From positions 1-27,879 of the IMG/VR virus record IMGVR_UViG_3300017912_002763: a DNA stretch of 27,879 nucleotides. One strand, written 5' to 3'. Of this stretch, positions 5,557 to 27,879 are shown one piece after another (the first letter of the stretch is position 1; every line of letters starts with the position of its first letter). Made by a program: the position numbers and the translations under genes. Origin of the DNA: a virus. Lineage: Duplodnaviria > Caudoviricetes. The notes under the pieces are model-generated. The model ran no database searches and was not told where the DNA came from. It worked only from the letters and a program-made list of their open reading frames with translations.

Positions 5557-6024
5557 TTAACCTCTAAATGGTTCTCTCTTAATTGCTGAAGGAGCTTGGT
5601 CTTGTCCTTCAGGTGCTTTACTAAAGTCTCTGACTTTATCGCTGATTTTTATTACTCTCTTCATATTTTCTTTTGCATCTTTTGCTGCAAATTTCTTTAG
5701 TTCAGCAGCTTTCAATGTACCTGTTGAATCGACCATATACATCATACCTTGGTCGCCACTACCGCCATCTGCAACTTCTTTATGACCAGCAACACCTAAT
5801 ACATATTTACCATCACTATAGTAAATATAATCTTCGTTTTCGCCATCAAAGTTTATACCTTGAGCAACTACAGGTTTTCCAATAAGATGGAATCGCATAG
5901 GATTATAATTAACAATACTTAAATCAGGATAATCACCACGTCCACCAGTAGATTTCCATAGCCTCTCTCCCATAGGACCTTCTTGTAAATTTATTACTTT
6001 CTTTTTAAACTCAAAGTAATCCAT
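5557..6024 (-). CDS. Hypothetical protein, possibly internal head protein
   Basis: 155 aa; N-terminus MDYFEFKKKVINLQE ends in an LxE site. Confidence 0.6.
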   Translation of the reverse strand: MDYFEFKKKVINLQEGPMGERLWKSTGGRGDYPDLSIVNYNPMRFHLIGKPVVAQGINFDGENEDYIYYSDGKYVLGVAGHKEVADGGSGDQGMMYMVDSTGTLKAAELKKFAAKDAKENMKRVIKISDKVRDFSKAPEGQDQAPSAIKREPFRG

Positions 6025-6923
6025 TAGTCAGACTCGTTATCACCTTTATAGTTCTTATCTACGTAATTAAAGAACTCTTTTTTCTTAACATCATCTAATT
6101 CAGCTGGAGATTTAACACCATACTTTTTCAATGCTTTGTTAAAGAACGCTTGATATTTCTTTTGCTTCTCAGATTCCTCTTTTGCTGCTTCGTCGGTTTC
6201 GTCTTCATCGTCATCGTCGTCGTCATCATCATCGTCATCGTCGTCGTCATCATCGTCCTTTTTACCATTGCCATTTTTCTTTGGCTCAGCCGGTTTTACA
6301 TCCATGGCCATTTCTTTTTTAGACTTAGCTGCTTCAAATAACTCTGGGAATACATCTTCAATATCACCATCATCCATACCATACATTTCAGGGTCTTGCA
6401 AGAATTTTAAAATCATTGCTTTATCACCTTTAATATCAGCTGTTTGGTTTGATGTAGGTTTAATATCTACTTTATATTTTCTTTTAGCGTCGGCTCTCAA
6501 TTTATTGTCGCCGATAAAATCTATATCTAGAGCTGTTTTACCTCGACCTGGTCTCTTTTTTAAGCGCTCGTTTATTACCGCCTCATCTATTTGAACTACA
6601 ACTTCTTCTTTCATGACTGAACCATCAGGTCTTTCACCAGATTTCTTAACAGCATGCTTTCCTTTAAAGCCTCGTTCTCCCATTTTTGAACCCATGTTTC
6701 CATCAGGAACTCTTGGCTCATCTACTTCAGCTACAACAATATTCAATACTTGTTTATCACGGTTATCTACTACGTATTTATTGGCAGCTTCTTTAGTAGC
6801 AAAGCCTTTTACTACTTTACCGTCAGTGTCAACAACATTGAATTTAACTGGAGCTGGTTTTCCTTCCATAACATTCTTAACAGAATTTGCTATGTCAAGA
6901 GTAATGTCGTCATTAAATTTCAT
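6024..6923 (-). CDS. Charged low-complexity protein, putative prohead core/internal protein
   Basis: AGGAG RBS; several [ILVM]xE sites, a 17-Asp run, C-terminal YQAFFNKALKKYGVKSP module. Confidence 0.65.
   Translation of the reverse strand: MKFNDDITLDIANSVKNVMEGKPAPVKFNVVDTDGKVVKGFATKEAANKYVVDNRDKQVLNIVVAEVDEPRVPDGNMGSKMGERGFKGKHAVKKSGERPDGSVMKEEVVVQIDEAVINERLKKRPGRGKTALDIDFIGDNKLRADAKRKYKVDIKPTSNQTADIKGDKAMILKFLQDPEMYGMDDGDIEDVFPELFEAAKSKKEMAMDVKPAEPKKNGNGKKDDDDDDDDDDDDDDDDDEDETDEAAKEESEKQKKYQAFFNKALKKYGVKSPAELDDVKKKEFFNYVDKNYKGDNESD
6207..6257 (-). repeat. GAT/GAC trinucleotide tract encoding poly-Asp (17)
   Basis: Read directly from the sequence; mixed GAT and GAC codons. Confidence 0.9.
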
Positions 6924-7890: not shown

Positions 7891-8395
7891 GACCTGCGAC
7901 CCTCTTCATTTGTTTTACAAACTCTGCATAGCTTGGTTTTGTTTTATATAACTTAATTGAAATCTCATCACGTTCTTTTCCTTTGATTCTCCAATTAATT
8001 CCTTTGTCCTTATGTTCTGGTTTAGTTGCTTTTACAACTCTTCTTTTATAACCATCTTCCCATGATTCACCTTTTCTTTTACCAGTACCTTCTTTAAATC
8101 CATATTTCTTTTTAAGCATATTCATAGCGGTTGCAATCTTTACAGATTTCCAATCCTTTCCATACCTAGCTTTAAAATCTTTATCAGGTAAATCCTTTGC
8201 TAGTTTCTCTAACTCTTTTTCTCTCGCTGGAGTGAGTTTGAAATCACTAGCCTCTTGAGCTGCTTTCATAGCTGCTGCAGTTGGTGCACCCTTCTCACCT
8301 TTCTTACGCATTCTTTCACCACGCTTTCTTTTAGCATGTATGTTAGCCCATAAGCCTTTGCTTTTTTCATCTATAAATTCTTTAAAACTTATCAT
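7874..8395 (-). CDS. Basic modular putative internal head protein
   Basis: MISFKEFIDE N-terminus; K/R-rich modules separated by Glu sites. Confidence 0.7.
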   Translation of the reverse strand: MISFKEFIDEKSKGLWANIHAKRKRGERMRKKGEKGAPTAAAMKAAQEASDFKLTPAREKELEKLAKDLPDKDFKARYGKDWKSVKIATAMNMLKKKYGFKEGTGKRKGESWEDGYKRRVVKATKPEHKDKGINWRIKGKERDEISIKLYKTKPSYAEFVKQMKRVAGHEFGG

Positions 8396-8796
8396 TTCTT
8401 TATATCATACCTATATAAGTAATTCTTTTGTTGACCTTTATCTGTGACTTTATAACCAGCCATTTGAGCTAAATTATCTAAGTAAGCTAATCCATCTTTC
8501 TTATTTCTTTTAATTCTTTTTTCTATTTGTGCTTTTAAACCTTCTAAAATCGAGTCTATAATAAATCTTTCAGGCATCACTAATGCTGATTCATTCGTTT
8601 TTCCTTCATTTACATCCTCATACATAGGTGCTAAAGCTTTAATTACTTTACCTAATATAAATGGGTCTATAGCTGCTATCATATCAGCATCTTTTCTACT
8701 AAGATTTTTTATACCTTTTATTTTATTATAAATGTTAGTATATCTAACTTCTTGTAGTCCTATTGATTGTAGGTGTGCATCTTTCCAATTTGGCAT
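8392..8796 (-). CDS. Hypothetical protein
   Basis: 134 aa, coupled on both sides; LQE/VNE/TNE sites. Confidence 0.65.
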   Translation of the reverse strand: MPNWKDAHLQSIGLQEVRYTNIYNKIKGIKNLSRKDADMIAAIDPFILGKVIKALAPMYEDVNEGKTNESALVMPERFIIDSILEGLKAQIEKRIKRNKKDGLAYLDNLAQMAGYKVTDKGQQKNYLYRYDIKK

Positions 8797-10121
8797 TACC
8801 TTATTCTCCCTTTGACTATATCATCTAAATTTTTATCCAACCAATCAATGAATTCATCTGGATCGTCAGTCCTGACTTCACCATTATTCATAGCCCATTG
8901 ATATAAATCGTTTTCAACATCCATAGGTAATTCTAAATTGCCTAACCTTACAGCTTTCTTTAACTCTCTTCCATGTTTACGAACAATATCTCTCATGGAC
9001 ATTTCTCTTATTTCACTAAAGGTTAATTTACCTTCGTTCACTTGAGCCATTATAGTATCTTGTCTTTTATACTTAAGATTACCACGTGGTCTTTTTCTTT
9101 CAAGTTTTGCTTTAACGGTTGATGATTTTGTTCTCATTTTAGGATTATCCTTTTCATACCAATCCCTTGGCATTTGAACAATTTTGTTTCCTTTAAATTG
9201 CATATCACCACCAGTCCAATCTGTTAATGCTTTCATTAGAACTATATTTAAATCAGTTCCCGGCTTAATTTTGTTATATGACTTAGCTCTCGCCATCATC
9301 TTATCAGAAACTTTCGATTTATCGTAAGGGTCAATATCTCCACCCGGCATAGTATGATAATATGCATCTATCATATCTGAGAAGGAATCATCACCATAGA
9401 ATCTATCTACATCTATATGAAACTTATGAACCTCTCTTGCAGTCTTTGCTTTATGAGGTGTCTTTAAGAATCTTTGTAATGCAACCAATTCAGGATAACT
9501 ATCTGGAATTTGCCATGTTCCTTCTTTTACTTCTTTTGATTCTTTCATAGCTACTGACATTTGAGATTTGAACTCTTCCATCTTCTTAGCATCACCTACT
9601 ACTTTTAGATGATTCTCTTCTCTGGATATTTCAACACCAATATCTTTTGCTATTTTATTCAGTTTATTATAAGTACTTGAACTAGTATCTGATACTTTTA
9701 ACTCAGATGTTTCAGCTTCTGGTAATTTCTTTTTCTCTTGCTTTGATTTGACTTTAGCTTCAACTTTATCTTTTATGAAATCAGCTAATTTCATTTTATA
9801 TTCTAATTCTTTCATTTTAATATTAAGCTTTCTTTCTCTTGTATCCATTGCACTTTCTTTAACTGATTCATTTGCAAACTGTAAAGCTTGTTGAACTTGA
9901 GGATGTCTGGATATCCCTCTTTTCATTTTTTCGATATTTTTAATTGCGTAATTCATTGCACCACCATGGTCCAATGCAAACTCAATTGCCTTTTTAAGTA
10001 CAGGGTCTCTGGCAGCCTTTTTAGCCAAAGGATTCTCTCTGTAATAAACAGAAAGTTCCTGACCAGTAAGCTTACTTCCAGACATCTTACTTAATCTTTC
10101 TTTTAGTTCTTTGAACTTCAT
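8796..10121 (-). CDS. Modular putative internal head protein
   Basis: MKFKELKE N-terminus; repeated VKE/MKE/VNE/IRE junctions. Confidence 0.7.
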   Translation of the reverse strand: MKFKELKERLSKMSGSKLTGQELSVYYRENPLAKKAARDPVLKKAIEFALDHGGAMNYAIKNIEKMKRGISRHPQVQQALQFANESVKESAMDTRERKLNIKMKELEYKMKLADFIKDKVEAKVKSKQEKKKLPEAETSELKVSDTSSSTYNKLNKIAKDIGVEISREENHLKVVGDAKKMEEFKSQMSVAMKESKEVKEGTWQIPDSYPELVALQRFLKTPHKAKTAREVHKFHIDVDRFYGDDSFSDMIDAYYHTMPGGDIDPYDKSKVSDKMMARAKSYNKIKPGTDLNIVLMKALTDWTGGDMQFKGNKIVQMPRDWYEKDNPKMRTKSSTVKAKLERKRPRGNLKYKRQDTIMAQVNEGKLTFSEIREMSMRDIVRKHGRELKKAVRLGNLELPMDVENDLYQWAMNNGEVRTDDPDEFIDWLDKNLDDIVKGRIR

Positions 10122-10122
10122 T

Positions 10123-11517
10123 TTAATTTCCTCTTACTTTAGCGGCTAAGTCCTTATCGGCCTTACCCCATGTTCCTGATGATTTAGTCACAAATGAATT
10201 AACTCTTGCTAATCCCCATTGTGTTGGATTGGTTCCAGGCCTATGACCTGTTCTCCAAGCTGCAACACCTCTATTAAAAACTTGTCTTAGTATACCTAAT
10301 GGCATACCAGATTTGTCAGCCTTCTTCTTCAAAGCGGCATCGGCTTTTCCTTTTTCTACCATGAAATCTTCAAAGGTTAAATGGTCAGCCATTTCACCGT
10401 ACATTTGTTTAAATTTCTTGGTATGTTTAGATGGTTTCGTCTTTGCAGTTTTATCACCAGGAGCAGGTTTATATGCTCTTGGGTCATCGTCATCCATCTT
10501 AGTTTGTTTATTAAATTGTGCTTGTCTTTTATCCTGTGTAGATTTACCTAAACCTTTATGGTACGCTTTATTTCTTTTTTGTGGTTTTTTATTCTCTTTT
10601 TTAGTTTTAGCGTGTGGATGTCCTACAATTCCTGAGTAAGGAGTATCTTTTAGAAATCTATTCAGAGCTTTTGCTGTCCCAAAGTCTCCTGCTCCACCTT
10701 CTTCTGCGAGCTCTACGGAGTCCAGCCAATATCTTTTTCTTATGTCGTTGCTTTCTACCATTACGTAATTCGAACCGCATACGATGATTCTCCCTTTTTC
10801 GTTATTTTCTTTTATTCTAACAAGGTCTCCGACTTTAAAGAGACTTCCTTCGATATACTCTTCACGAGTTTGTGAGACTGGAGGTAATTCAATATGTTGC
10901 CTAAAAGAACGTGTCTCAGTGAGTCCCATTCCTTTTCTAACTGCGTTGAATAAGCCAGAAGTATCCTTAAAGCCGGACGGTAATCCTTTAGCAAAACCTG
11001 CTAGGTCGTTTTGTTGAGCGAACGCTCTCATTTTTGAGGCCGACATGCCCGATGCTCCTTCAGCATCTGGGTCACGTTCACCTGCGGAAACTACATTTAT
11101 TTGCTCAAAATTATAGAATCCATGTCTTCCTTTTTCTCCATTATACTTCTGTAATAGTGTATCAAATTCTATTACTCTATCGGAACCGACAACCATTGTG
11201 ACTTTTACAAAGCCTTGGTCATAGAGTAATGTGACTATATCGAATACTGTACGTATGTTCTTATCTCCCATAATAGCTCTTGCATGTTTAGGAAACATTT
11301 TACGTACGAACTTTATTTTATCTTTAAATTCTAATGGATTCTTTTTTGAGTCTTGTGACTTAGATGTATATATGCGATAAGCACCAGAACGTGCTTGTTT
11401 TTTCACTGCATCAAAGAGCTTTTCATGCCCTATGGTTGGAGGGTTATACCTCCCGAATGTAAATGTGACTTCTTTCGTTGCTTCAGTTAAAAAGTCACTA
11501 AATGATTTAATTGACAT
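10123..11517 (-). CDS. Cytidylyltransferase-family (HxGH) nucleotidyltransferase fused to basic C-terminal domains (DUF5824-like)
   Basis: FGRYNPPTIGH, VVGSDR and SASKMR motifs; C-terminal VFNRGVAAWRTGHRPG...QWGLARVNSF module. Confidence 0.8.
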   Translation of the reverse strand: MSIKSFSDFLTEATKEVTFTFGRYNPPTIGHEKLFDAVKKQARSGAYRIYTSKSQDSKKNPLEFKDKIKFVRKMFPKHARAIMGDKNIRTVFDIVTLLYDQGFVKVTMVVGSDRVIEFDTLLQKYNGEKGRHGFYNFEQINVVSAGERDPDAEGASGMSASKMRAFAQQNDLAGFAKGLPSGFKDTSGLFNAVRKGMGLTETRSFRQHIELPPVSQTREEYIEGSLFKVGDLVRIKENNEKGRIIVCGSNYVMVESNDIRKRYWLDSVELAEEGGAGDFGTAKALNRFLKDTPYSGIVGHPHAKTKKENKKPQKRNKAYHKGLGKSTQDKRQAQFNKQTKMDDDDPRAYKPAPGDKTAKTKPSKHTKKFKQMYGEMADHLTFEDFMVEKGKADAALKKKADKSGMPLGILRQVFNRGVAAWRTGHRPGTNPTQWGLARVNSFVTKSSGTWGKADKDLAAKVRGN

Positions 11518-11535
11518 TTATATCCTCGGTTCCCA

Positions 11536-12777
11536 TTAGCCAGGATTGTCCCAGCCCTTTATAATATCTGGCGAAAAGTTATTGGTAGAAAATTCTAATC
11601 TATCAACTAACTTTACCGCTCCACCTTCCGTACGGTCTATAGCTACAAAGCCCTCAGGGCCGGTGACTTTAAACCCGGATTTAGTTTTTACAAACGTATC
11701 AATATTTGATAACGTCTTTAGTTTATTTATAATAATTAGTTTTGCATCTGTGACTAAAGTGTGTAAAATAAACACTTGTTCAAGGATTCCTAGGTTTTTA
11801 TCAGAAAAAAACTCTAATAGTTTATCCCTTTCACCTTCTTTTTTACCTCTACCTTTAGGTGTTTTTAACTTAGATATTTGTTTTGCATATCTTTCATTTA
11901 CAAATTTAATTAATCCTTTTGCGTGTTTCTTCGGATCTGATATTCTTTCACCTCTTCTCACAGCTGTATTGTTATATATGTTTACTACTAAATTTAATTC
12001 TTTATTGTTTTCTAATTCTTTTAATACAGGTGCTTCTACTTTTCTAAATACTGAACCTGCTTGTGATAGTAAACCATTTAATTTTTTTGTTGTACTTGAA
12101 TCTAGTAAAGCTTTACCTGAAACATCAGGATATGTTGCATCAACCATCCAAACTGCAGATGTTTTCTTTAATCCTGTGGCTATTGATTTACCAAAGGATG
12201 CTTTCATATTTTCAAATTTAGTACCTGTATACATTGTATGCCATACTATTCCTATCTTAGCTTTTGCTATTTTCTTTGCTAATGGCGTACCAAAAGGTAT
12301 AGCATAAACGATAGTATTAGGATGGAAAGTAATATGTCTAACTCCATTTATTTTCTCCGCTTTTAAATCACTTGCTTCAAACATAAAGTCACCTTGTATA
12401 ACACCTCTTATACCAACATCCTTTAAATTATCAAAAGCGAGTTTTAGTTTTTTATTTAAATCACCTGATGTATCAGCATCGATATCAGCATGATTCTTAT
12501 AAACTTTTGGATTCTTTGCAAATATACCTTTTTTGGCTACAAAGAACTGACCATCTTCTGGGTCTACACCTGCAAATACGGCGGGGGCTCCGTCCCATTT
12601 GACAGAAATGTCCACAGGTGCTTTTGCATTTCCGCTCAACATATCCCTCAATGACCTTAGCGCTAGGATAGCTTGGCGAGCCCCCTTAACTCCACCGTCT
12701 AAGATTAAATCCTCAATATGTGTCATATGAGTATTCTTAGCTTCGGTTATGTAGTTATGGTTTATAAAACTTTTCAC
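11536..12777 (-). CDS. Ligase-like covalent nucleotidyltransferase-fold protein (DUF6267-like)
   Basis: NTHMTHIEDL, KWDG (motif I), IQGDFMF (III), PEGFVA (IV), VKLV (V). Confidence 0.65.
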   Translation of the reverse strand: MKSFINHNYITEAKNTHMTHIEDLILDGGVKGARQAILALRSLRDMLSGNAKAPVDISVKWDGAPAVFAGVDPEDGQFFVAKKGIFAKNPKVYKNHADIDADTSGDLNKKLKLAFDNLKDVGIRGVIQGDFMFEASDLKAEKINGVRHITFHPNTIVYAIPFGTPLAKKIAKAKIGIVWHTMYTGTKFENMKASFGKSIATGLKKTSAVWMVDATYPDVSGKALLDSSTTKKLNGLLSQAGSVFRKVEAPVLKELENNKELNLVVNIYNNTAVRRGERISDPKKHAKGLIKFVNERYAKQISKLKTPKGRGKKEGERDKLLEFFSDKNLGILEQVFILHTLVTDAKLIIINKLKTLSNIDTFVKTKSGFKVTGPEGFVAIDRTEGGAVKLVDRLEFSTNNFSPDIIKGWDNPG

Positions 12778-20450: not shown

Positions 20451-20702
20451 TTAATACCTCCTTTCTGGTCTAAGTTGCATGGCTTTTTCTTTTTTTCTCC
20501 AACGTGCAATTGCTTCCTTTTTTATACGTTGGCGTTTTTGATTAGGCTTTTCGTAATATTCTCTTTTACGAACTTCTTGTACAATGCCAGCCCTTTCGCA
20601 TTGTTTCTTAAATTTTCTCAAAGCAACATCAAATGGCATTGGCTTAGCCGGACGTTTATCTCTGGGATGCCTCTTACGAGGTCTTAAATCTACACTTGGC
20701 AT
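20451..20702 (-). CDS. rpsU: 30S ribosomal protein bS21
   Basis: [31 protein letters not shown], a canonical S21 signature; AGGAG RBS. Confidence 0.93.
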
Positions 20703-20735: not shown

Positions 20736-20770
20736 ATTATAACATAAAATCAGTTAATTGTAAACTGTTT
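20736..20770 (-). promoter_or_regulatory. Sigma70-like promoter for rpsU-uvsX-41, inside the 3' end of the MTase-like gene
   Basis: AAACAG-TTTACA(20764-20759)-17 nt-TATAAT(20741-20736). Confidence 0.85.
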
Positions 20771-21933
20771 TTTTCATATTCGTACGTTCTTTTTTTATTG
20801 TCAATAAGCATGTAAGGTGTTTCAATCAAATCTACTTTGTTATCAAAATAAGCTAATAGATTCTCAACCATATCTTCAGCAGTTTTTACTGGTACGTTCT
20901 GACATATATGATTGATTTGATTGCTTACTAAGTTCATGTCTTCTGGTAAATGCATGATTCTCATTGATTCTCTAACTGTTAAGTATCTATCTTCGTATGG
21001 ATGGCATGTTTGTACTGGCAAATGACCTACAAAAGCTCCAATATAATTCTTAGCCCATGTGGTAGTTCTTCTCATAACATTTCCACCAGCCTTTATTTTC
21101 TTATTCATTCTATCTATAATTTTATAGTGCCTTTCATGTCCTTGCTCTTTTAGCCATGGTAAAAGGTTATCATAGGAATCGTTATCTTCAATATAATCAA
21201 AACAATTATTTGAATGTTCTAAAGTATCGTAAAATTCTCTATGGTTTATACCACCATGTAGCTCTTCAAGTATGTATCTATAGAAGGGCAAATCAGATGG
21301 AGTATGTTGATTTGGTAGATAATTCATTGGATCTGCTTCAGATCGAGGCCCAGAGGTGATGACTGATTCAATTCTTTCGTTAGGCCAACGGTTTACATAG
21401 GGTAATAATGGTGCCTGATGCCCTTTAAAAAAGAAATAAAATGTTCTATCTCTGATTTGACTATACCCTTGTACTAATGATTTGGTCTTCAGAAGTACAA
21501 AGGTATAACCATACTGCTCCCCTATTTTTCGTAGTTTCTCTACTACAGGTACACCAGTCTTTTGTGCTAACCTTGGTGCATTCTCTCCCCAAAAAACTCT
21601 TGGTTCTATTTTACCTAAAACATAATGTGCTGTTTCGTACATCCAATTATTTGCTGGTTTATCAGCAGCTGAATGAGTTGATAGTGTGGATAAACCTGCG
21701 CATGGACAAACTGTATTGACCATATCTACTTTCTTTGGTTTATGATTTTTGTTCTCATCTAAATGTATATAATCTCCTTGCCAACCTTTTTGTCTAATGT
21801 AGTTTATATAATGAGAATCGTTTGGTTCAAAATCTGAATATGATAAAACTTCCTCTGGCATTTGACCATTGAGTTTATTCATAACTGCTATGCTTTCACC
21901 ACCTATTAGTGGTACAATACTACTGTATTTCAT
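20737..21933 (-). CDS. DNA cytosine-C5 methyltransferase-like protein with atypical SAM-binding motifs
   Basis: PCAGLS (IV), ENAP (VI), QIRDRTF (VIII), [12 protein letters not shown] (IX); motif I reads VPLIGG and motif X reads ICQNVP. Confidence 0.8.
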
Positions 21934-23413
21934 TCATCACCTTTGTTAACATTCTTGTTTGTCTTTCCACATCATCGTAATGCAGTGGTATACAAGTTGC
22001 AAGTAATAGTAATCCACCCATAAGTATTTGGTCCTTCGGTAGATTATATTCATCTAACTTTCTTAAAAATAAATCTTTTACGTATTCATTATGTGGAACA
22101 TCAGCAACAATAGCGTTATATCCATAGTAACAATCATGAGCTAACTTAGCCCAGTCATATATGTTATCACCCATTGTTCCATGCCAACTACCATACTTTC
22201 CTCTTGGGTCTAATAATTTAAACTGGTCTGTTTGTTGATTATATAGAATGTTTGCTAAATGTAAATCACCATGCATTCCATTTATTGGTGAAGTATGTAG
22301 ATAAACTTGTTCAGCCATTTCATGTAATTGAGCTACTTTCCAAGCTTCCATTACATTATAGAATTCATGATTTAATCTTTCTTCGGTTTTATCGACCCAC
22401 ATCTTTTTTGAATTCTTACTAAAATCATCAATCAATCCTTCATCTTCAACTGGATTATTAAAATATTTTAACTTAATTCTAAATATTCTATCTATAATAT
22501 AATCCCAATGTGACTCAGGCATATTTTCATATAACATCAAATCACTAAGTAATGTACCACTTTCATATGACATAATTAATTGAGTTGGATGTTTTAATAT
22601 TCTTGGTACGAACATCGATTGCTCATCGTTTAAACATTTATACCAATACTTTTCGTTTTGTAATGTTTCCCTTGAATGTTTATCATGATAATCTGGTAAT
22701 TTTGTAATGGTTCCAAGCTCTGGATTAAATTCCAAATTATTAAATGCTCTTGCTTTTCTATTCAATAGCGATGCACAGGTTTTATAGTATGTTGGCAGAT
22801 CACCTATGTCGTACCATTCTTTAGTAATATATTGGCTAAAGTTTCCATAAAGTTCTAGTGCACCTGATATATCGTATGCCCTACTTTCATTGAAAGCCTG
22901 TTTAGCTCTCATACCTTCGCTAAATGAATATAGGCCAACTAAAGCATTTGCATTTGGTATTGGTTTTTCTGGTTTATTATAATATTTAGTACCATCCCAC
23001 ATACACCAAGCTGATTGATTATCAACTTCTTTTGTTAATAAAAAGTTTGTACCCAATGGCATATCTTTTTCTAATATAATCGCATCACCTAACCATACAA
23101 CAACTGGTTTCAATGGATTGGTCAATGCGTTCATTCCAATCTTAATAGCATCTCTTGGTCCATCAAAAGATGGTTGATTAGCAAACCTTACCTTGGGATG
23201 TTTTACAGCACAATACTCTCGGATATCCGTATACTTTCCATCAACCACGACTATTTCATCAACGCTGCCATTGACTGCCTCTATTATATAATCTAGGCAA
23301 GGTTTACCATTTACACGTACCATAACCTTCGACGTGCCAGAAGATAGAGGTCTTAGTCTTGTTGCTGCTCCTGCAGCAGGGATAACTAAATTGAATCCAT
23401 TTTGTTTGTCCAT
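21920..23413 (-). CDS. Sugar-phosphate nucleotidyltransferase fused to APH/choline-kinase-like domain
   Basis: IPAAGAATRLRP...KVMVRVNGKP, WLGD, WYDIG; C-terminal HGDLHLANIL, LLDPRG, YDWAKL. Confidence 0.85.
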   Translation of the reverse strand: MDKQNGFNLVIPAAGAATRLRPLSSGTSKVMVRVNGKPCLDYIIEAVNGSVDEIVVVDGKYTDIREYCAVKHPKVRFANQPSFDGPRDAIKIGMNALTNPLKPVVVWLGDAIILEKDMPLGTNFLLTKEVDNQSAWCMWDGTKYYNKPEKPIPNANALVGLYSFSEGMRAKQAFNESRAYDISGALELYGNFSQYITKEWYDIGDLPTYYKTCASLLNRKARAFNNLEFNPELGTITKLPDYHDKHSRETLQNEKYWYKCLNDEQSMFVPRILKHPTQLIMSYESGTLLSDLMLYENMPESHWDYIIDRIFRIKLKYFNNPVEDEGLIDDFSKNSKKMWVDKTEERLNHEFYNVMEAWKVAQLHEMAEQVYLHTSPINGMHGDLHLANILYNQQTDQFKLLDPRGKYGSWHGTMGDNIYDWAKLAHDCYYGYNAIVADVPHNEYVKDLFLRKLDEYNLPKDQILMGGLLLLATCIPLHYDDVERQTRMLTKVMNEIQ

Positions 23414-23760
23414 TTAACAAATTCCTCCAAGTTCATTGCTTTATCATCTACGTAATATGTTCCTGAGTAAGGTTTACCCCATACTAATTCATCGTATGGT
23501 ACATCATATCTTTCCAACCAATCGGTTGTTATCTTACCTACATCTTCTATGATTTTCTCAATATCGCCATCATGTGTTAGCATTCTTCTGGCAGTTAATA
23601 AAATAATATGGAACCCTAAATTCTTCAGTACTCTCATACCTTTGATTACCTTATTATTAGGTAGTGCGTTTCCATATTTTTGTTGTGCATCTTGATAGTT
23701 GTGATTTGTAAAACAAATCGTATCATCTATATCGATTACTATTGTCTTTTTCTTATCCAA
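23386..23760 (-). CDS. HAD-family phosphatase (BcbF/EcbF capsule-biosynthesis type)
   Basis: DIDDTIC, LTAR, GKP, YVDDKA motifs; capless 124 aa. Confidence 0.85.
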   Translation of the reverse strand: MDKKKTIVIDIDDTICFTNHNYQDAQQKYGNALPNNKVIKGMRVLKNLGFHIILLTARRMLTHDGDIEKIIEDVGKITTDWLERYDVPYDELVWGKPYSGTYYVDDKAMNLEEFVKWTNKMDSI

Positions 23761-25108
23761 AGAAATCCTCCAAACTAGTTGTATTTAAATCTTTCATCTT
23801 AGTATGTACAATTCTTTTCTTCTTTTCGAAATAACTTAATTGTTGTTCTATGACTTCTTTTGCTCCAAATGCTGGAATGTGATTATTAAAAATATCCATG
23901 AAAGTATCTATAGAAGTTATTCCAAAGCATTTTTCAAGTAATTGAGTCACTGTCATTTTGTCTGTTTGCTTTCCAACTGTCTCTATATGTTTTAACATAG
24001 GTGGTATTACATTAGACGCATCAGCTTCCTGATAGAGGAACTCAATACCGTCCGCCAAATAATTGGCATATAACATTTCATTATTTGCTAACTCATGAAT
24101 TCTATCTCTTGTTTCTTCTAGATTATTTCTATCTGACCAAATGGCAATATCATTCTTTATAAATGCTCTACCTTTTTCATCGATATTATTTTCACCATAA
24201 TCTTTATCAAATACTGGAACTGTACCTACAGCAATTATTTCCATTTGAGCATATTCAAACCTATCACCATAGTTGTGTCTTTCCTTTGGAAGGTTATAAC
24301 CACTATAACCAAACAATGAGTTTGATATTAGGTTCATACCATCTTCATATTCATAAGGACCAAAGCTTTCACATATATCGCTATCATAATTATAACCATC
24401 AAACTTATCTGTCCAGTTAGTGATATCAATAATATCAAACTTAGCACCAATAGACCTTTCAATACCATGAATTGAATAATGGAAATCTTTATCTAAGTTA
24501 AACATTTCAACCATTCTTTTTGGGTCCTTCATAGTTGTCCAACGACTTGCGTATATACAACTTCTTCTTTTATCTTTAAATGGAACCCAATACTTCTCGT
24601 AATCAGAAACAGTAAATGGTAATTTCATACGAGCAATCCTTTCGCCAAGTTTCTTATCGGTCAGAATACTTGATATATCTTTTGCGTAAGATGTTTCTGT
24701 TGAGAAGTTAAATATAATATCACATGCATTTGCAATAGGTATGTGCATTGGTATTCTATCAAAGTTCATTCTTTTAATCTCATGCATCATACCAACAAGA
24801 ATCGGTTTCTCTATTTTAAGAACTAAATCTTCAAAGAAGCTTTTAACTGTTGATTGTTTATGTAATGGACTTGGATAAGAATTAAGCATAACAATATCAT
24901 AATTGTCATTTAACTTTTTAGCTACCTCTGGTATTTCTTCAGCTTTGAATGAGATGGAATCTTTTATATGTCCACCTGAGCGAGTAAATCCACGTTCTTG
25001 TAAATCATATATGTCCACATCATCAGGCATATATCTTTGGAATTCATATCCAAACTTTTCTACTCCGCAGCCATCTAGGCCTTTTCCAAATACTATTGCA
25101 ATTTTCAT
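23753..25108 (-). CDS. agt: DNA alpha-glucosyltransferase-like (T4 AGT family)
   Basis: GKGLDGCGVEKF (T4 ARGLEGCGVTKF), RWTTMK, GIERS, EYAQMEIIAVGTVPVF. Confidence 0.88.
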   Translation of the reverse strand: MKIAIVFGKGLDGCGVEKFGYEFQRYMPDDVDIYDLQERGFTRSGGHIKDSISFKAEEIPEVAKKLNDNYDIVMLNSYPSPLHKQSTVKSFFEDLVLKIEKPILVGMMHEIKRMNFDRIPMHIPIANACDIIFNFSTETSYAKDISSILTDKKLGERIARMKLPFTVSDYEKYWVPFKDKRRSCIYASRWTTMKDPKRMVEMFNLDKDFHYSIHGIERSIGAKFDIIDITNWTDKFDGYNYDSDICESFGPYEYEDGMNLISNSLFGYSGYNLPKERHNYGDRFEYAQMEIIAVGTVPVFDKDYGENNIDEKGRAFIKNDIAIWSDRNNLEETRDRIHELANNEMLYANYLADGIEFLYQEADASNVIPPMLKHIETVGKQTDKMTVTQLLEKCFGITSIDTFMDIFNNHIPAFGAKEVIEQQLSYFEKKKRIVHTKMKDLNTTSLEDFFG

Positions 25109-25118
25109 AATTAGTTAT

Positions 25119-25153
25119 ATTATATCATAAAATCAGTGATTTGTACACTGTTT
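25119..25153 (-). promoter_or_regulatory. Sigma70-like promoter for the agt operon, inside the 3' end of the upstream GT gene
   Basis: AAACAG-TGTACA(25147-25142)-17 nt-TATAAT(25124-25119). Confidence 0.75.
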
Positions 25154-25971
25154 TTTTCTAAATCTTTCACGTGCTTAGGTACACCTTTTGGTATAACCTT
25201 TAGGTTGATTTTTCTATTGTGTGTTTTGTCTTTAAGATTGACAAGTGTAATGTGTCTTGGATATAGTTTATGTAAGTCATAAGCAGCTTGTTGCATCACG
25301 TCTGCCTTACGTGCGGACGCGTTACCACCTTCTTTTTCTTTTCCAATAATTAGTTGCCATTTAGTAATAAAGAAATTATTATATCCTTTTTCAATAGCTC
25401 CACAAAATGCTGCTATATCTTCGTAGTATCTTACTTTAGTATAACCTAAATCATCAGCTGTAAGTTTTTCTAAATTAATAAAAGAACTAAATGCACCCCA
25501 ACGATTTAATCCTATAGGAAATATATCTTTACCTTTTGGAAATGTTGCAGTTGCGATTACACCAAATGGCATATCTTCAAGTAATCCAATTGAGTAATTA
25601 ATTAAATCATAGAACGATTCTTCTGATAGTTTCTTCTCTTTAATTACATAATCCTTTTCTTCTGTAATATGACAAGGTACTATCTTTATATCATCATCCA
25701 TCATCCAAATCTTTTGGTTCTCAAACATCCAATGCCTACATATAGCATCTCTTTTTTCTGGTATACCCGAATATTTTGGCACATCAATAGGAACTAAATT
25801 TACACCTGGATAATCAACTGTAATTTTTTTATAACGTTCCATTTCAGATACTTCTCTTCTAATACAAACGTAAACTCTTTTGTAAAAACTTTCAGGAATC
25901 CATCCATTTTCCAATGCATCTATTTTACCATCAGGTCTTTTATATGTTGGTATAACTATTTTCATAACCAA
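25120..25971 (-). CDS. Beta-glucosyl-HMC-alpha-glucosyltransferase-like GT-A enzyme
   Basis: IVIPTYKR, IWMMDDD, KLTADDLGYTKVRYYED, GG.ASAR; collinear with the T2/T6-type enzyme as I recall it. Confidence 0.8.
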   Translation of the reverse strand: MVMKIVIPTYKRPDGKIDALENGWIPESFYKRVYVCIRREVSEMERYKKITVDYPGVNLVPIDVPKYSGIPEKRDAICRHWMFENQKIWMMDDDIKIVPCHITEEKDYVIKEKKLSEESFYDLINYSIGLLEDMPFGVIATATFPKGKDIFPIGLNRWGAFSSFINLEKLTADDLGYTKVRYYEDIAAFCGAIEKGYNNFFITKWQLIIGKEKEGGNASARKADVMQQAAYDLHKLYPRHITLVNLKDKTHNRKINLKVIPKGVPKHVKDLEKNSVQITDFMI

Positions 25972-26261
25972 AGGTACTCAATTAAATTTCTAATTAACAA
26001 TACTAATCCTATTCCGTTTAACATAATCAGTGCTCTATCTCTCCAAATAACTGATACGATTAACCATAAGAATATTCCAATAATTGATAACACTAAATCA
26101 TAAAATTGAAACTCTGCTATTCCTCTCATTGACATAGCAGCAAGTACGAATGCTGATGCTATCCATTTTACATACCAATCAACTGTATATTTTGGAGTTG
26201 CACTTTTATATATACGTTTAGAATTTTCTATTTCTTCTGGACTAAACTTCTGTGAAGTCAT
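25962..26261 (-). CDS. Small multi-TM membrane protein
   Basis: Three hydrophobic helices; WYVKW and WRDRALIMLN motifs. Confidence 0.75.
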   Translation of the reverse strand: MTSQKFSPEEIENSKRIYKSATPKYTVDWYVKWIASAFVLAAMSMRGIAEFQFYDLVLSIIGIFLWLIVSVIWRDRALIMLNGIGLVLLIRNLIEYLWL

Positions 26262-26682
26262 AAACTACTCCTGCCTCTTTAAATATTTCGTTTGTTTTTC
26301 CTATTGCTTCAACCCATCTATCTGGAGTTCCTTCTGATACAGCAACAACTCTTGATACTCCAGCTTGTATAATACCTAAAGCACAATCACCACAAACTGG
26401 TAAACCATATATGTAGAGTGTTGAATCTCTTAATGATATTCCATTTTCAGCTGCGTTATATATGCAATTCATTTCAGCATGTACCACATATTGATATTTT
26501 GTTTCTCTATCGTTATATCTTTCTTCAGTATCTTCAATACCTTTAGGAAATCCATTATAACCTGTAGCTAGTATTTTTCTATCTCGTACAGCGATAGCAC
26601 CTATTTTTCTACTTGGGTCTTTACTCCATGTAGATATTTCATATGCAATACCAAGAAATCTTTTATCCCACTTATTCAGCAA
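26242..26682 (-). CDS. cd: dCMP deaminase
   Basis: WSKDPS, ATGYNGFP, HAEMNCI, PVCGDC zinc motifs. Confidence 0.92.
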   Translation of the reverse strand: MLNKWDKRFLGIAYEISTWSKDPSRKIGAIAVRDRKILATGYNGFPKGIEDTEERYNDRETKYQYVVHAEMNCIYNAAENGISLRDSTLYIYGLPVCGDCALGIIQAGVSRVVAVSEGTPDRWVEAIGKTNEIFKEAGVVYDFTEV

Positions 26683-26923
26683 ACAACAAACTCCATTTCA
26701 TTAACTTTTCTTTTTTAACTTTCATTCTGTCTTCTATTTGTTTATCATCAACGAATCCACTCATTTTTAATATTTCTATCATACACATAACATCGCCTAT
26801 TTCATCTTGTAAATTTCTTACGTATTTAGTATCTTCTTTTGTTCGTATTACTTTACTACAAGCTTGAATTAACTCGCCACATTCTTCCATAGTAATTACT
26901 AAAGCTTCTTCTCTTTTGTTCAT
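26672..26923 (-). CDS. MazG-like nucleotide pyrophosphohydrolase
   Basis: MEECGELIQACSK...LQDEIGDV pattern (EExxE...ExxD). Confidence 0.85.
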   Translation of the reverse strand: MNKREEALVITMEECGELIQACSKVIRTKEDTKYVRNLQDEIGDVMCMIEILKMSGFVDDKQIEDRMKVKKEKLMKWSLLFAE

Positions 26924-27597
26924 TTAACTAAATCGAAATGCCTCTCATAAACATGTAAGTTTTGAACTTGCCAATAGATATTACCACCAGATTTTAAAGG
27001 ATGTCCACTAAAATATAAAGCTTTTTCAAGTTGTTCCAATACATACTTTTGCCAAGCATAATCATTCTTATAACCAAACACTACATCATTACTTCTCATT
27101 TGAACTACACAATGTAATCTTTCATCACGAATATAATATGTCACAGCGTTAGTACATATAAAATCATTCTTATCATTTTCTTTATACTCATGCCAGATAC
27201 TTGGCCTTTGATAAATCATTGATGCTCTACGTGAGTCTGGATTATCGGTTAGTTCTCTTAAAACTTTATCGTATTGTTTAAAATACTTCTTACCATAGAT
27301 TAGATGACCATAGTTAGAATTGATTTCACCATGTACATTAGCAGAATATTGCCAAGCTTGTGGTGGTTCTCTATCTCCTTCGGGATAGATATCAGTAATG
27401 TTTGTTGACTTAGATTTATACCAGTTAATTTCAGCTTTGATATAATCTTCATTAGGTTTGCCAAAGATTGATTCTTCATCAGCAACAAATGATGCACCAA
27501 TCAATTCAATTGTTTTTGCACCAGTCTTATCAGTAGTAAAGTTTTCTTTTTCTAACTCACTAATAAAATGTTTTCTTATATCAGCTACTTTCATCAT
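26920..27597 (-). CDS. 42: dCMP hydroxymethylase (T4 gp42-like, thymidylate synthase fold)
   Basis: DKTGAKTIELIGASFVADE, GEINSNYG, DFICTN, MRSNDVVFGYKNDYAWQ closely match T4 gp42, including the cytosine-specifying Asp. Confidence 0.92.
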   Translation of the reverse strand: MMKVADIRKHFISELEKENFTTDKTGAKTIELIGASFVADEESIFGKPNEDYIKAEINWYKSKSTNITDIYPEGDREPPQAWQYSANVHGEINSNYGHLIYGKKYFKQYDKVLRELTDNPDSRRASMIYQRPSIWHEYKENDKNDFICTNAVTYYIRDERLHCVVQMRSNDVVFGYKNDYAWQKYVLEQLEKALYFSGHPLKSGGNIYWQVQNLHVYERHFDLVK

Positions 27598-27879
27598 TAT
27601 TCACCGGTTGATTGAACATATCTCTGTTAGGGTCTTGGCCTTCCATTTTACCACGAAGATACGCTACACAAAATGATGCATAATTGATTAAGTCTTTGTA
27701 TGAATCTTCCAGGGATTCAAAGTTTGGTTCTTTTCCTGACTCAAGCAAAGATGTGGCACGTATTAGTTTACCTAAACATGCATCATGTAAAGTATCAATA
27801 CCTCTACGATAATGCATCTCGTGTGTTATCGTACTCTTAGCACTTGGGTCACCTTCAGATTTTCTATCTTGTGGCCTTG
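27581..27879 (-). CDS. Nucleotide-modification-associated (DUF1599/Nmad1-like) protein, 5' end outside the window
   Basis: PNFESLEDSYKDLINYASF motif; frame stays open upstream of 27817 to the window edge. Confidence 0.65.
   Translation of the reverse strand, partial: RPQDRKSEGDPSAKSTITHEMHYRRGIDTLHDACLGKLIRATSLLESGKEPNFESLEDSYKDLINYASFCVAYLRGKMEGQDPNRDMFNQPVNNDESS

Follow-up and report, generated by a model that had tools for sequence, protein, structure and literature searches.

A predicted hmC-modification cassette with its own sugar-activation genes in an uncultured marine T4-like phage

Described systems

The sugars known on modified phage cytosines are glucose, galactose, arabinose, heptose and amino sugars. 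Here, we compare a cassette of tightly packed genes from an uncultured marine T4-like phage with the closest described systems; "the window" means the whole stretch of DNA analysed (27,879 nt).

Phages T2 and T6, which carry glucosyl- and gentiobiosyl-hmC, share with the window a gp42 ortholog, transferases of the AGT and TAGT families, and a dCMP deaminase. Unlike T2/T6, the window possesses its own sugar-activation genes and a methyltransferase (MTase), and its AGT shares 27% identity with T4 AGT and 37% with phage G gp306. The donor-pocket histidines of this AGT are altered, and it ends in a clamp-type tail that is absent from T4 AGT.

In the available text of PMC13326640 and PMC12838424, the arabinosyl-5-hydroxycytosine pathway of RB69, DLP3, HY126 and Thanatos employs a nucleotidyltransferase-kinase fusion and a small HAD phosphatase, as does the window. 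AfhE and AfhF make UDP-arabinofuranose in RB69-type arabinosylating phages, with AfhE converting arabinose 5-phosphate (Ara5P) to Ara-1,5-bisphosphate (available text of PMC13326640). In both systems, the fusion and HAD genes adjoin a thymidylate-synthase homolog and DNA glycosyltransferases (GTs), between polymerase and uvsX. The window differs in having a synthase of the hmC type (no D169N), AGT and TAGT instead of RB69 gp46:47, neither an isomerase nor a homolog of U32, a kinase and HAD outside the arabinose clade, and an attached C5-MTase-like gene. Because the fusion and HAD are homologous to AfhE/AfhF-type genes (F48 gp91, E 5e-13; RB69 gp51, E 1e-7), the sugar-activation logic of the original prediction is already known, being the AfhE/AfhF route of the arabinosylating phages (available text of PMC13326640). 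We found no description, in the literature searched, of this route combined with hmC and a transferase of the AGT kind.

Four cultured phages carry parts of the same gene set, none of them all of it. Bacillus phage G (gp301-gp319) has a kinase, HAD, nucleotidyltransferase, MTase and two AGTs that share the Phe of the window's AGT (see below), but its sugar genes are separate and more distant. Pseudoalteromonas phage XG4 and Enterococcus phage 9183 have the hmC synthase, HAD and fusion with an unrelated 416-aa putative GT, and in Stenotrophomonas phage DLP6 the module is accompanied by TAGT-like and TET-like genes. The literature searched yielded no nucleoside analysis of these four phages, and nothing usable on the nucleosides of S-TIM5.

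Outside phages, the closest homologs of the kinase domain and HAD lie in bacterial loci of the BcbE/BcbF/BcbG type, where the two genes are likewise adjacent. We take the Pasteurella multocida B/E and Escherichia coli K4 loci to belong to this type, EcbF/BcbF being presumably P. multocida capsule genes and KfoE of K4 presumably a BcbE homolog; none of the four E. coli stretches examined held the K4 kfo locus. In these bacterial loci, unlike the phages, a separate BcbG-like gene follows, and the product is used for surface glycans; the fused N-terminal domain scores weakly there. None of the phage GTs matched a bacterial-locus gene, so the two have no GT in common.

Gene content and distribution of the cassette

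All eight genes named in the original prediction are present on the minus strand (20737-27597) and belong to the families claimed (Pfam, PHROGs, NCBIfam). They are contiguous and mostly coupled, as was stated: of the nine junctions that link the DUF1599 gene through to that of the MTase, eight overlap by 4-28 bases and the other is an 11-base gap. Two genes had been overlooked, those for DUF6552 and DUF1599/Nmad1. The features are as follows.

27581..27877, minus: DUF1599/Nmad1 protein associated with nucleotide modification; truncated at its 5' end by the edge of the contig (the relative L001, 99% identical, has 110 aa)
26920..27597, minus: predicted dCMP hydroxymethylase of the T4 gp42 type; catalytic Cys148, and Asp at the positions that correspond to L143, D169 and N177 of ThyA
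26672..26923, minus: small MazG-like NTP pyrophosphohydrolase (Pfam, PHROGs); many close relatives lack it at that position
26242..26682, minus: dCMP deaminase (Pfam, PHROGs)
25962..26261, minus: DUF6552 small membrane protein, weakly SemiSWEET/MtN3-like (Pfam, NCBIfam)
25120..25965, minus: GT-A glycosyltransferase of the TAGT/beta-glucosyl-HMC-alpha-glucosyltransferase family; DDD motif, C-terminal clamp-type motif
23753..25108, minus: AGT-family GT-B DNA glycosyltransferase; Phe at T4 His140, C-terminal clamp-type motif
23386..23760, minus: HAD phosphatase; kin of the EcbF/BcbF family, with AfhF/RB69 gp51 as more distant relatives
21920..23413, minus: fusion with the architecture of AfhE; a sugar-phosphate nucleotidyltransferase of RmlA/GalU fold (residues 1-220, approximately) is followed by a kinase of the APH/choline-kinase type (222-497, approximately)
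20737..21933, minus: C5-cytosine methyltransferase-like protein; invariant catalytic residues, deviant motif I, C-terminal clamp-type motif

The kinase, phosphatase and nucleotidyltransferase described as a trio are thus three predicted activities encoded by two genes. Nor is the cassette the self-contained island that had been proposed, since the window holds neither a dNMP kinase nor a sugar-phosphate isomerase, and the cassette is one of at least six exchanged at a fixed slot. A compositional island was dismissed as well: G+C is 0.31-0.35 in the cassette and 0.30-0.39 in the remaining contig, with no step along it. The cassette is swappable, and the presence of at least six alternatives in the slot suggests rapid turnover against modification-dependent defences.

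Relatives of the fusion, taken from the best 80 of 118 loci, were clustered at 90% identity into 39 clusters. Within this sample, the neighbourhood of the fusion includes HAD in 38 clusters, a putative DNA GT in 37, MTase in 35, hmC synthase in 32 and TET/JBP in four; hmC synthase or TET/JBP is found in 36, and the other three are cut within 700 bases upstream. Among these phage relatives the fusion therefore usually sits beside a putative DNA GT (37/39), contrary to the outcome that would have refuted the original prediction (a trio usually found without DNA GTs), though cluster L077 has the module with no recognisable GT. Viewed from the transferase, the fusion is visible in 22 of 26 close AGT loci, and the remaining four end before reaching it. 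The module is also present in Enterococcus phage 9183.

A pattern scan of 185,579 cellular genomes, which misses distant relatives, gave 17 matches, one of which was confirmed and resembles a binned phage contig. A host capsule locus misread as phage was ruled out by this single confirmed cellular match together with the T4-like neighbour genes.

Base, sugar supply and transfer

The synthase has a thymidylate-synthase fold and matches T4 gp42 far better (E 7e-71) than the RB69-like hydroxylase (E 7e-10). By alignment it has the catalytic Cys, Asp/Glu at L143 and Asp at N177 expected of the gp42 type, and retains Asp169, where the RB69-like chain has the Asn (D169N) of the 5hodCMP synthases; retention or loss of this Asp separates hmC-type from 5hodCMP synthases (available text of PMC13326640). 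The enzyme is thus of the T4 gp42 type, predicted to make hmC, and not an RB69 hydroxylase. A 5-hydroxycytosine reading of the base was rejected because the active-site signature is hmC-type.

Within the fusion, the nucleotidyltransferase domain is recognised at E 2.7e-11 and the APH kinase match is weak (E 0.04). The best family for the HAD is the NCBIfam EcbF-BcbF model (TIGR01689), at 90.5 bits against a curated cut-off of 162. With the kinase-domain profile, five BcbE-like proteins from bacteria reach 102-128 bits and five arabinose-clade proteins 33-53; with the HAD profile, bacterial BcbF-type proteins reach 66-86 bits and the arabinose clade 34-45. Scores are 1.5- to 4-fold higher on the bacterial proteins. 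The fused nucleotidyltransferase domain, in contrast, scores 29-43 bits on the arabinose clade and 13-32 on BcbE-like proteins. In the trees, support values of 97/99 (kinase) and 100/99 (HAD) set the arabinose clade apart, and the window clade sits on its own long branch, distant from both arabinose and bacterial reference groups. In a quick tree, grouping the window clade with the arabinose clade was disfavoured (AU p 0.018) compared with grouping it with the bacteria (AU p 0.14), with long branches limiting certainty on the deeper branching order of both kinase and HAD trees. Judged from these sequences, the kinase and HAD lie outside the arabinose clade; their similarity of 23-43% does not fix the substrate.

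One way of approaching the donor is through fold. The structure model of the fusion, built from 39 sequences to replace an earlier 7-sequence model (pLDDT 59), ranks RmlA/GalU-type sugar-1-phosphate enzymes first in a fold search. This fold makes the NDP-polyol, one of the two dedicated donors originally proposed, less likely. The other, an NDP-sugar used by DNA GTs on hmC, is a prediction supported by the gp42-type synthase, the AfhE/AfhF homology, the clamp-type motifs and the co-occurrence. In 39 of 39 rows the nucleotidyltransferase has Asn or Asp before the invariant Lys147-Pro148 instead of Glu, a residue that we take to have a role in RmlA. There are also weak matches to HddC-like and choline-phosphate cytidylyltransferases.

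Both transferases are assigned by PHROGs (AGT, phrog_2888, E 1.6e-79; TAGT/beta-alpha-GT, phrog_842, E 7e-19). TAGT is an accessory part of the cassette, being present in four of nine AGT clusters and missing in five (best 80 of 118 loci), and across the 39 fusion clusters of that sample the sugar module is retained while the GT changes among three families. Four columns of T4 AGT (His114, Glu306, His116 and His140) are presumably donor-pocket residues, with His140 taken to bind glucose O6; the literature search on these histidines found nothing usable. The His114 and Glu306 columns are conserved in the window AGT, and those of His116 and His140 are altered. The His140 column is Phe in 20 of 20 AGTs tied to the fusion/HAD module or from phage G, kin that represent one or two evolutionary events, and His in four of six more distant AGTs with other sugar genes.

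The C-terminal clamp-type motif of the polymerase (76/92) recurs in AGT (26/28), TAGT (14/18) and MTase (60/76). It is found in 0/58 fusions, 1/52 HADs and 1/1123 proteins of other families.

The proposed pathway and its alternatives

Taken together, the cassette probably replaces cytosine with hmC and decorates it with a sugar from a phage-made, non-glucose donor. The sugar is likely a furanose, and the leading candidate is fructofuranose, a prediction to which we give slightly less than an even chance. The lead towards fructose is the higher scoring of the kinase and HAD on the bacterial BcbE/BcbF-type proteins. One set of bacterial homologs sits inside an O92-family O-antigen cluster, O92 being a homopolymer described as fructan (PMC7685785), and the P. 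multocida B and E capsules contain fructofuranose (PMC10627249); a fructose role for the bacterial BcbE/BcbF-type genes would follow by association.

In the fructofuranose pathway, the gp42-type enzyme would make hmdCMP, and the dCMP/dCTP pools would be depleted by the deaminase and pyrophosphatases. By analogy with the AfhE reaction, the kinase domain would take a furanose phosphate from the host and phosphorylate its anomeric OH (Fru6P to Fru-2,6-bisphosphate), the HAD would take off the distal phosphate, and the nucleotidyltransferase domain would form the NDP-sugar, with UTP as the probable nucleotide. Carried by the sliding clamp, the AGT-family enzyme would move the sugar onto hmC in new DNA, and TAGT, where present, would add a second sugar or fill other sites. 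The purpose may be to evade nucleases, including those recognising glucosyl-hmC; we infer an anti-restriction role from other phages only. More tentative again is the idea that widespread aquatic T4-like phages borrowed the fructofuranose-activation route of bacterial capsules to place fructofuranosyl-hmC on DNA, possibly with a second sugar, the same donor serving both gp42 hmC and TET/JBP base chemistries and GTs from three families that are not related.

If true, hmC bearing a phage-made furanose would be a further base type, AGT-family enzymes would be seen to switch donors by pairing with new sugar-supply genes, and the phage enzymes would reveal the NDP-fructose step of bacterial capsules, which is poorly defined. 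Fructose and glucose are equal in mass, so surveys that rely on mass alone would take fructosylated bases for glucosyl-hmC.

The same pathway could instead run on UDP-D-arabinofuranose, made from host Ara5P, to give arabinosyl-hmC. We consider this unlikely, although the fused architecture is the same, the nucleotidyltransferase domain shows no greater similarity to bacterial BcbE, loss of His140, given its presumed role, would suit a pentose, and the S21 of the phage looks proteobacterial in our reading, proteobacterial hosts making Ara5P for Kdo. The only phage homologs with measured chemistry do make UDP-arabinose (available text of PMC13326640). The arabinosyl-hmC assignment of RB69 has been called erroneous (PMC13390438). 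Against arabinose stand the separate arabinose clade and its disfavoured union with the window clade, the module's presence in a phage of Enterococcus, and the want of any match to an RB69 gp46:47-type arabinosyltransferase in the window or 185 viral loci. An Ara5P isomerase homolog was likewise found neither there nor in the 19.6 kb stretch of phage 9183, which is uninformative since the F48, JS98 and Thanatos-2 stretches also lack it. It is quite unlikely that the module makes some other dedicated donor, be it NDP-ribofuranose (with ribose 5-phosphate as its source), a heptose by HddA/GmhB/HddC logic, or a polyol phosphate: no SIS (sugar isomerase) gene lies near the fusion/HAD, and the fold search and nearest bacterial homologs point to RmlA/GalU and BcbE/BcbF types, even though kinase-phosphatase-nucleotidyltransferase logic is general, the window clade is far from both reference groups, weak HddC-like and cytidylyltransferase matches exist, and heptosylated hmC occurs in TET-type clusters (available text of 10.1101/2023.12.21.572611).

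Improbable, too, is ordinary glucosyl/gentiobiosyl-hmC, with the fusion and HAD merely boosting or salvaging UDP-glucose. AGT with beta-alpha-GT is the T2/T6 pair, the nucleotidyltransferase has a glucose-1-phosphate nucleotidyltransferase fold, and phage G couples its AGTs with a G1P-thymidylyltransferase-like gene; the altered His116 and His140 columns, the replaced Glu, the persistence of the module across GT swaps and the frequent lack of TAGT all speak against it. The notion of fusion/HAD-type genes as purely DNA-modification genes is not supported, given homologs in bacterial capsule and O-antigen loci and in the fucose/GT non-DNA glycan cluster of cyanophage S-SRM01. These homologs, with the small membrane protein of the cassette, would fit a module that supplies a glycan for a virion protein or the host surface and merely occupies a DNA-modification slot. 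Such a role is highly improbable in view of the hmC synthase or TET/JBP in 36 of 39 clusters, the clamp-type motifs of the flanking GTs and the single confirmed match among the 17 from the pattern scan of cellular genomes.

Returning to the fructofuranose pathway, the MTase would methylate cytosines that escaped substitution. Dinucleotide odds yielded no target for it (those for CpG were 0.64 for the window, 0.82 for the stretch of S-TIM5 and 1.05 for that of RB69). The protein is C5-MTase-like (E 6.5e-14), and the catalytic Cys of motif IV, the Glu-Asn of VI and the Gln-x-Arg-x-Arg of VIII are invariant in 53 of 53 sequences. The canonical SAM-binding motif I of C5-MTases is F-x-G-x-G-G; at its position, all 53 have an invariant P-L-x-G-G.

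Gene content and setting

Every gene named in the original prediction was found in the window, mostly overlapping its neighbors, together with two that had been overlooked: DUF6552 and a DUF1599/Nmad1 gene cut by the contig end. The principal genes of the cassette are as follows.

26920..27597, minus strand, T4 gp42-type synthase
25120..25965, minus strand, TAGT-family glycosyltransferase (TAGT)
23753..25108, minus strand, AGT-family glycosyltransferase (AGT)
23386..23760, minus strand, HAD phosphatase (HAD)
21920..23413, minus strand, nucleotidyltransferase-kinase fusion
20737..21933, minus strand, C5-methyltransferase-like protein (MTase)

The record (27,879 bases) is about 15% complete and also carries T4-like nrdA, gp41, gp40, and uvsX and a ribosomal protein S21 gene, with no G+C step between the cluster and the rest of the window. 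A 99%-identical relative continues beyond the window's contig end, with a DNA polymerase, a PRA-PH/MazG-like pyrophosphatase, and a primase-like gene upstream; the cluster is therefore positioned between polymerase and uvsX, as are RB69's own modification genes. At least half of the region's sampled words were present in 19 public runs from 8 studies, labeled seawater, estuary, marine, or plain metagenome, and the best run may be the source sample.

The S21 gene (20451-20702) lies directly downstream of the cassette, a position kept in many marine relatives. In many cassette types, the gene after that for dCMP deaminase encodes the DUF6552 membrane protein (25962-26261 in the window), which is weakly similar to SemiSWEET/MtN3. 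Elsewhere in the window, 10123-12777 and 6024-6923 hold cytidylyltransferase-like/DUF5824 and DUF6267 genes and one for a 299-aa protein bearing a long run of aspartates. In several relatives (loci L093, L096-L098), the hmC synthase has a beta-ketoacyl synthase gene close by.

Predicted base and sugar activation

The synthase matches T4 gp42 at E 7e-71 versus 7e-10 for the RB69-like hydroxylase chain, and the alignment places Asp at the ThyA L143, D169, and N177 positions. In PMC13326640, L143D/E with N177D marks dCMP modification and D169N marks 5-hydroxy-dCMP synthases; the predicted product is hmdCMP. For RB69, the earlier arabinosyl-hmC assignment was wrong, according to PMC13390438.

The idea that a kinase, phosphatase, and nucleotidyltransferase make a dedicated donor is well supported. 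A confident model of the 497-aa fusion, built with 39 sequences (pLDDT 90, pTM 0.78), matches RmlA/GalU structures in its N-terminal half (E 3e-12). The C-terminal half is similar to ESM Atlas clusters of the APH family (0.97-0.98; APH on 11-81% of members where given), and its kinase residues E254, H381-G382-D383, N388, and D402 are invariant in 39/39 rows. The fusion is homologous to F48 gp91 (E 5e-13) and RB69 gp53 (6e-5), and the HAD to RB69 gp51 (1e-7). According to PMC13326640, HY126 AfhE and AfhF make UDP-arabinose from arabinose 5-phosphate, with the 1,5-bisphosphate and then the 1-phosphate as intermediates. PMC12838424 assigns pyrophosphorylase activity to TH1_063 and not to the fusion TH1_060; therefore, enzyme roles in these clusters are partly provisional. 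APH phosphotransferases beside phage glycosyltransferases had already been recorded, and left unresolved, by Pyle et al. (bioRxiv 10.1101/2023.12.21.572611).

The activation route is thus of a known kind, here recombined with hmC and AGT/TAGT-family enzymes. Neither this combination nor its product was found in the literature by searches aimed at targets other than fructosylated bases, and the primary Afh papers may survey further combinations.

Candidate sugars

T4 AGT His140 is the residue that we take to bind glucose O6. In a 27-row alignment, its column holds Phe in all 18 module-tied AGTs and both phage G proteins, and His in T4 and four of six distant AGTs (the others having Tyr and Gln); the His116 column varies in parallel. 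A cultured test case is offered by Bacillus phage G gp301-gp319 (L021), which encodes these two AGT homologs, a kinase, a HAD, and a nucleotidyltransferase as separate genes, an MTase of the same family, and a synthase bearing the hmC signature.

The sugar may be fructose or, less probably, arabinose. The top NCBIfam model for the HAD is EcbF-BcbF, at a score below cut-off. In plasmid and E. coli searches, capsule and O-antigen loci turned up in which a HAD gene, a kinase-bearing gene, and a BcbG-like gene are grouped. One such set lies upstream of wzm/wzt genes annotated as O92 family; the kinase gene of this set is broken up in the annotation, and the comparison used an intact cluster with 74% identity over 4.9 kb. 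We presume kfoE to be homologous to this kinase family. O92 is a homopolysaccharide for which "New fructan" is cited (PMC7685785), P. multocida B and E have fructofuranose side chains (PMC10627249), and K4 fructosylation is linked to kfoE (PMC8858990, PMC10609508).

The kinase-domain profile scored 102-128 bits on five bacterial proteins versus 33-53 on five arabinose-clade (Afh-type) proteins, and the HAD 66-86 versus 34-45; the arabinose proteins form separate supported clades (97/99 for kinase, 100/99 for HAD). Grouping the window's clade with the arabinose clade was disfavored in an AU test (p 0.018), but grouping it with the bacterial proteins was not (p 0.14); the test rested on a quick, long-branched tree that excluded four long rows, and its groups were named once a first tree had been built. 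Against fructose, however, the nucleotidyltransferase half scored 29-43 bits on the arabinose clade versus 13-32 on the bacterial proteins, and no phage glycosyltransferase matches any gene of the bacterial loci. The D-arabino furanose ring common to fructose 6-phosphate and arabinose 5-phosphate would account for a single family serving both. The search for an isomerase homolog came up empty in the window, in 185 overlapping viral loci, and in the stretches of XG4, 9183, DLP6, G, and RSL1, but equally in those of F48, JS98, and Thanatos-2.

Homologs also occur outside DNA modification. Bacteria use them for surface glycans, and cyanophage S-SRM01 carries a distant module amid fucose and glycosyltransferase genes, with no synthase annotated within 12.9 kb. 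For the subfamily itself, 17 pattern hits in 185,579 genomes yielded a single confirmed match, on a contig equal in length to a viral contig.

Cassette exchange and associated proteins

The survey of co-occurrence proposed originally bore out the association: a putative glycosyltransferase lies within 3.2 kb of the fusion in 37/39 clusters (90% identity; the 105 full-length copies, some of which share a contig, come from other scans and the best 80 of the 118 confirmed IMG/VR loci). In this set, the HAD (38/39) and MTase (35/39) lie within the same distance, and for 32/39 clusters the locus includes an hmC-type synthase. The neighboring glycosyltransferases were a 416-aa family (24), AGT (9, four of them joined by TAGT), and TAGT accompanied by a TET/JBP oxygenase (4). 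The 416-aa family is a putative assignment, with a weak Pfam match in one member and none in another. Of the two remaining clusters, one is truncated 572 bases upstream, and the other (L077) has no recognizable glycosyltransferase.

Starting from the synthase, 49 of the best 80 of at least 518 loci had at least 5 kb downstream, giving 39 clusters.

Contents of the cassette slot (39 synthase clusters; best 80 of at least 518 loci)
Epimerase with or without UDP-glucose dehydrogenase: 9
Inositol-phosphate synthase: 7
Galactopyranose mutase: 7
Unnamed set: 7
This fusion/HAD module: 6
HAD-kinase fusion with cytidylyltransferase: 3

The MTase is present in 29/39 of these clusters. Most glycosyltransferases in the slot travel with their own sugar-supply genes, and distant AGTs (22-25%) accompany the other sugar sets; therefore, what had been described as a self-contained island is instead a swappable cassette.

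The inositol-1-phosphate synthase cassette (L121, L125, L148, L151) follows the dCMP deaminase and includes a HAD and two clamp-motif proteins. The unnamed four-gene cassette (L145, L164-L166, L170) encodes proteins of 391, 328, 314, and ~360 aa with no Pfam matches at E 0.01. The HAD-kinase fusion and TagD-like cytidylyltransferase (L144:5176-6216, L159:13127-14161, L162, L184), beside an AGT-like or 416-aa glycosyltransferase, are the same three activities differently arranged. Fusion and HAD with TET/JBP oxygenase and TAGT, lacking hmC synthase and MTase (L054, L055/L056, L060/L062, L063, and DLP6, L019:7733-12023), suggest that this donor is also used on a hydroxymethyl-pyrimidine resembling base J.

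A clamp-type C-terminal motif, presumably for gp45 binding, resembles the ends of these phages' own polymerases. Using a pattern defined after viewing the window's termini, and among distinct complete proteins that are kin, it occurs in AGT (26/28), TAGT (14/18), MTase (60/76), and polymerase (76/92), versus fusion (0/58), HAD (1/52), synthase (0/114), and unlabeled-family proteins (1/1123).

The MTase (METHYLTRANSFERASE) has invariant catalytic residues and a fixed P-L-x-G-G motif I in 53/53 rows, with M.HaeIII as top profile match (E 1e-10), and is missing from all four TET clusters. We infer that it methylates leftover cytosines; it may instead have a non-methylating role on hmC. Cultured homologs occur in XG4, S-TIM5-group cyanophages, and phage G. 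In S-TIM5, the N177 position of the thymidylate synthase is Asp and the synthase gene lies near one of the same MTase family (L022:4757-5593, 7977-9194), and the source of that phage's modified cytosine may therefore merit re-examination.
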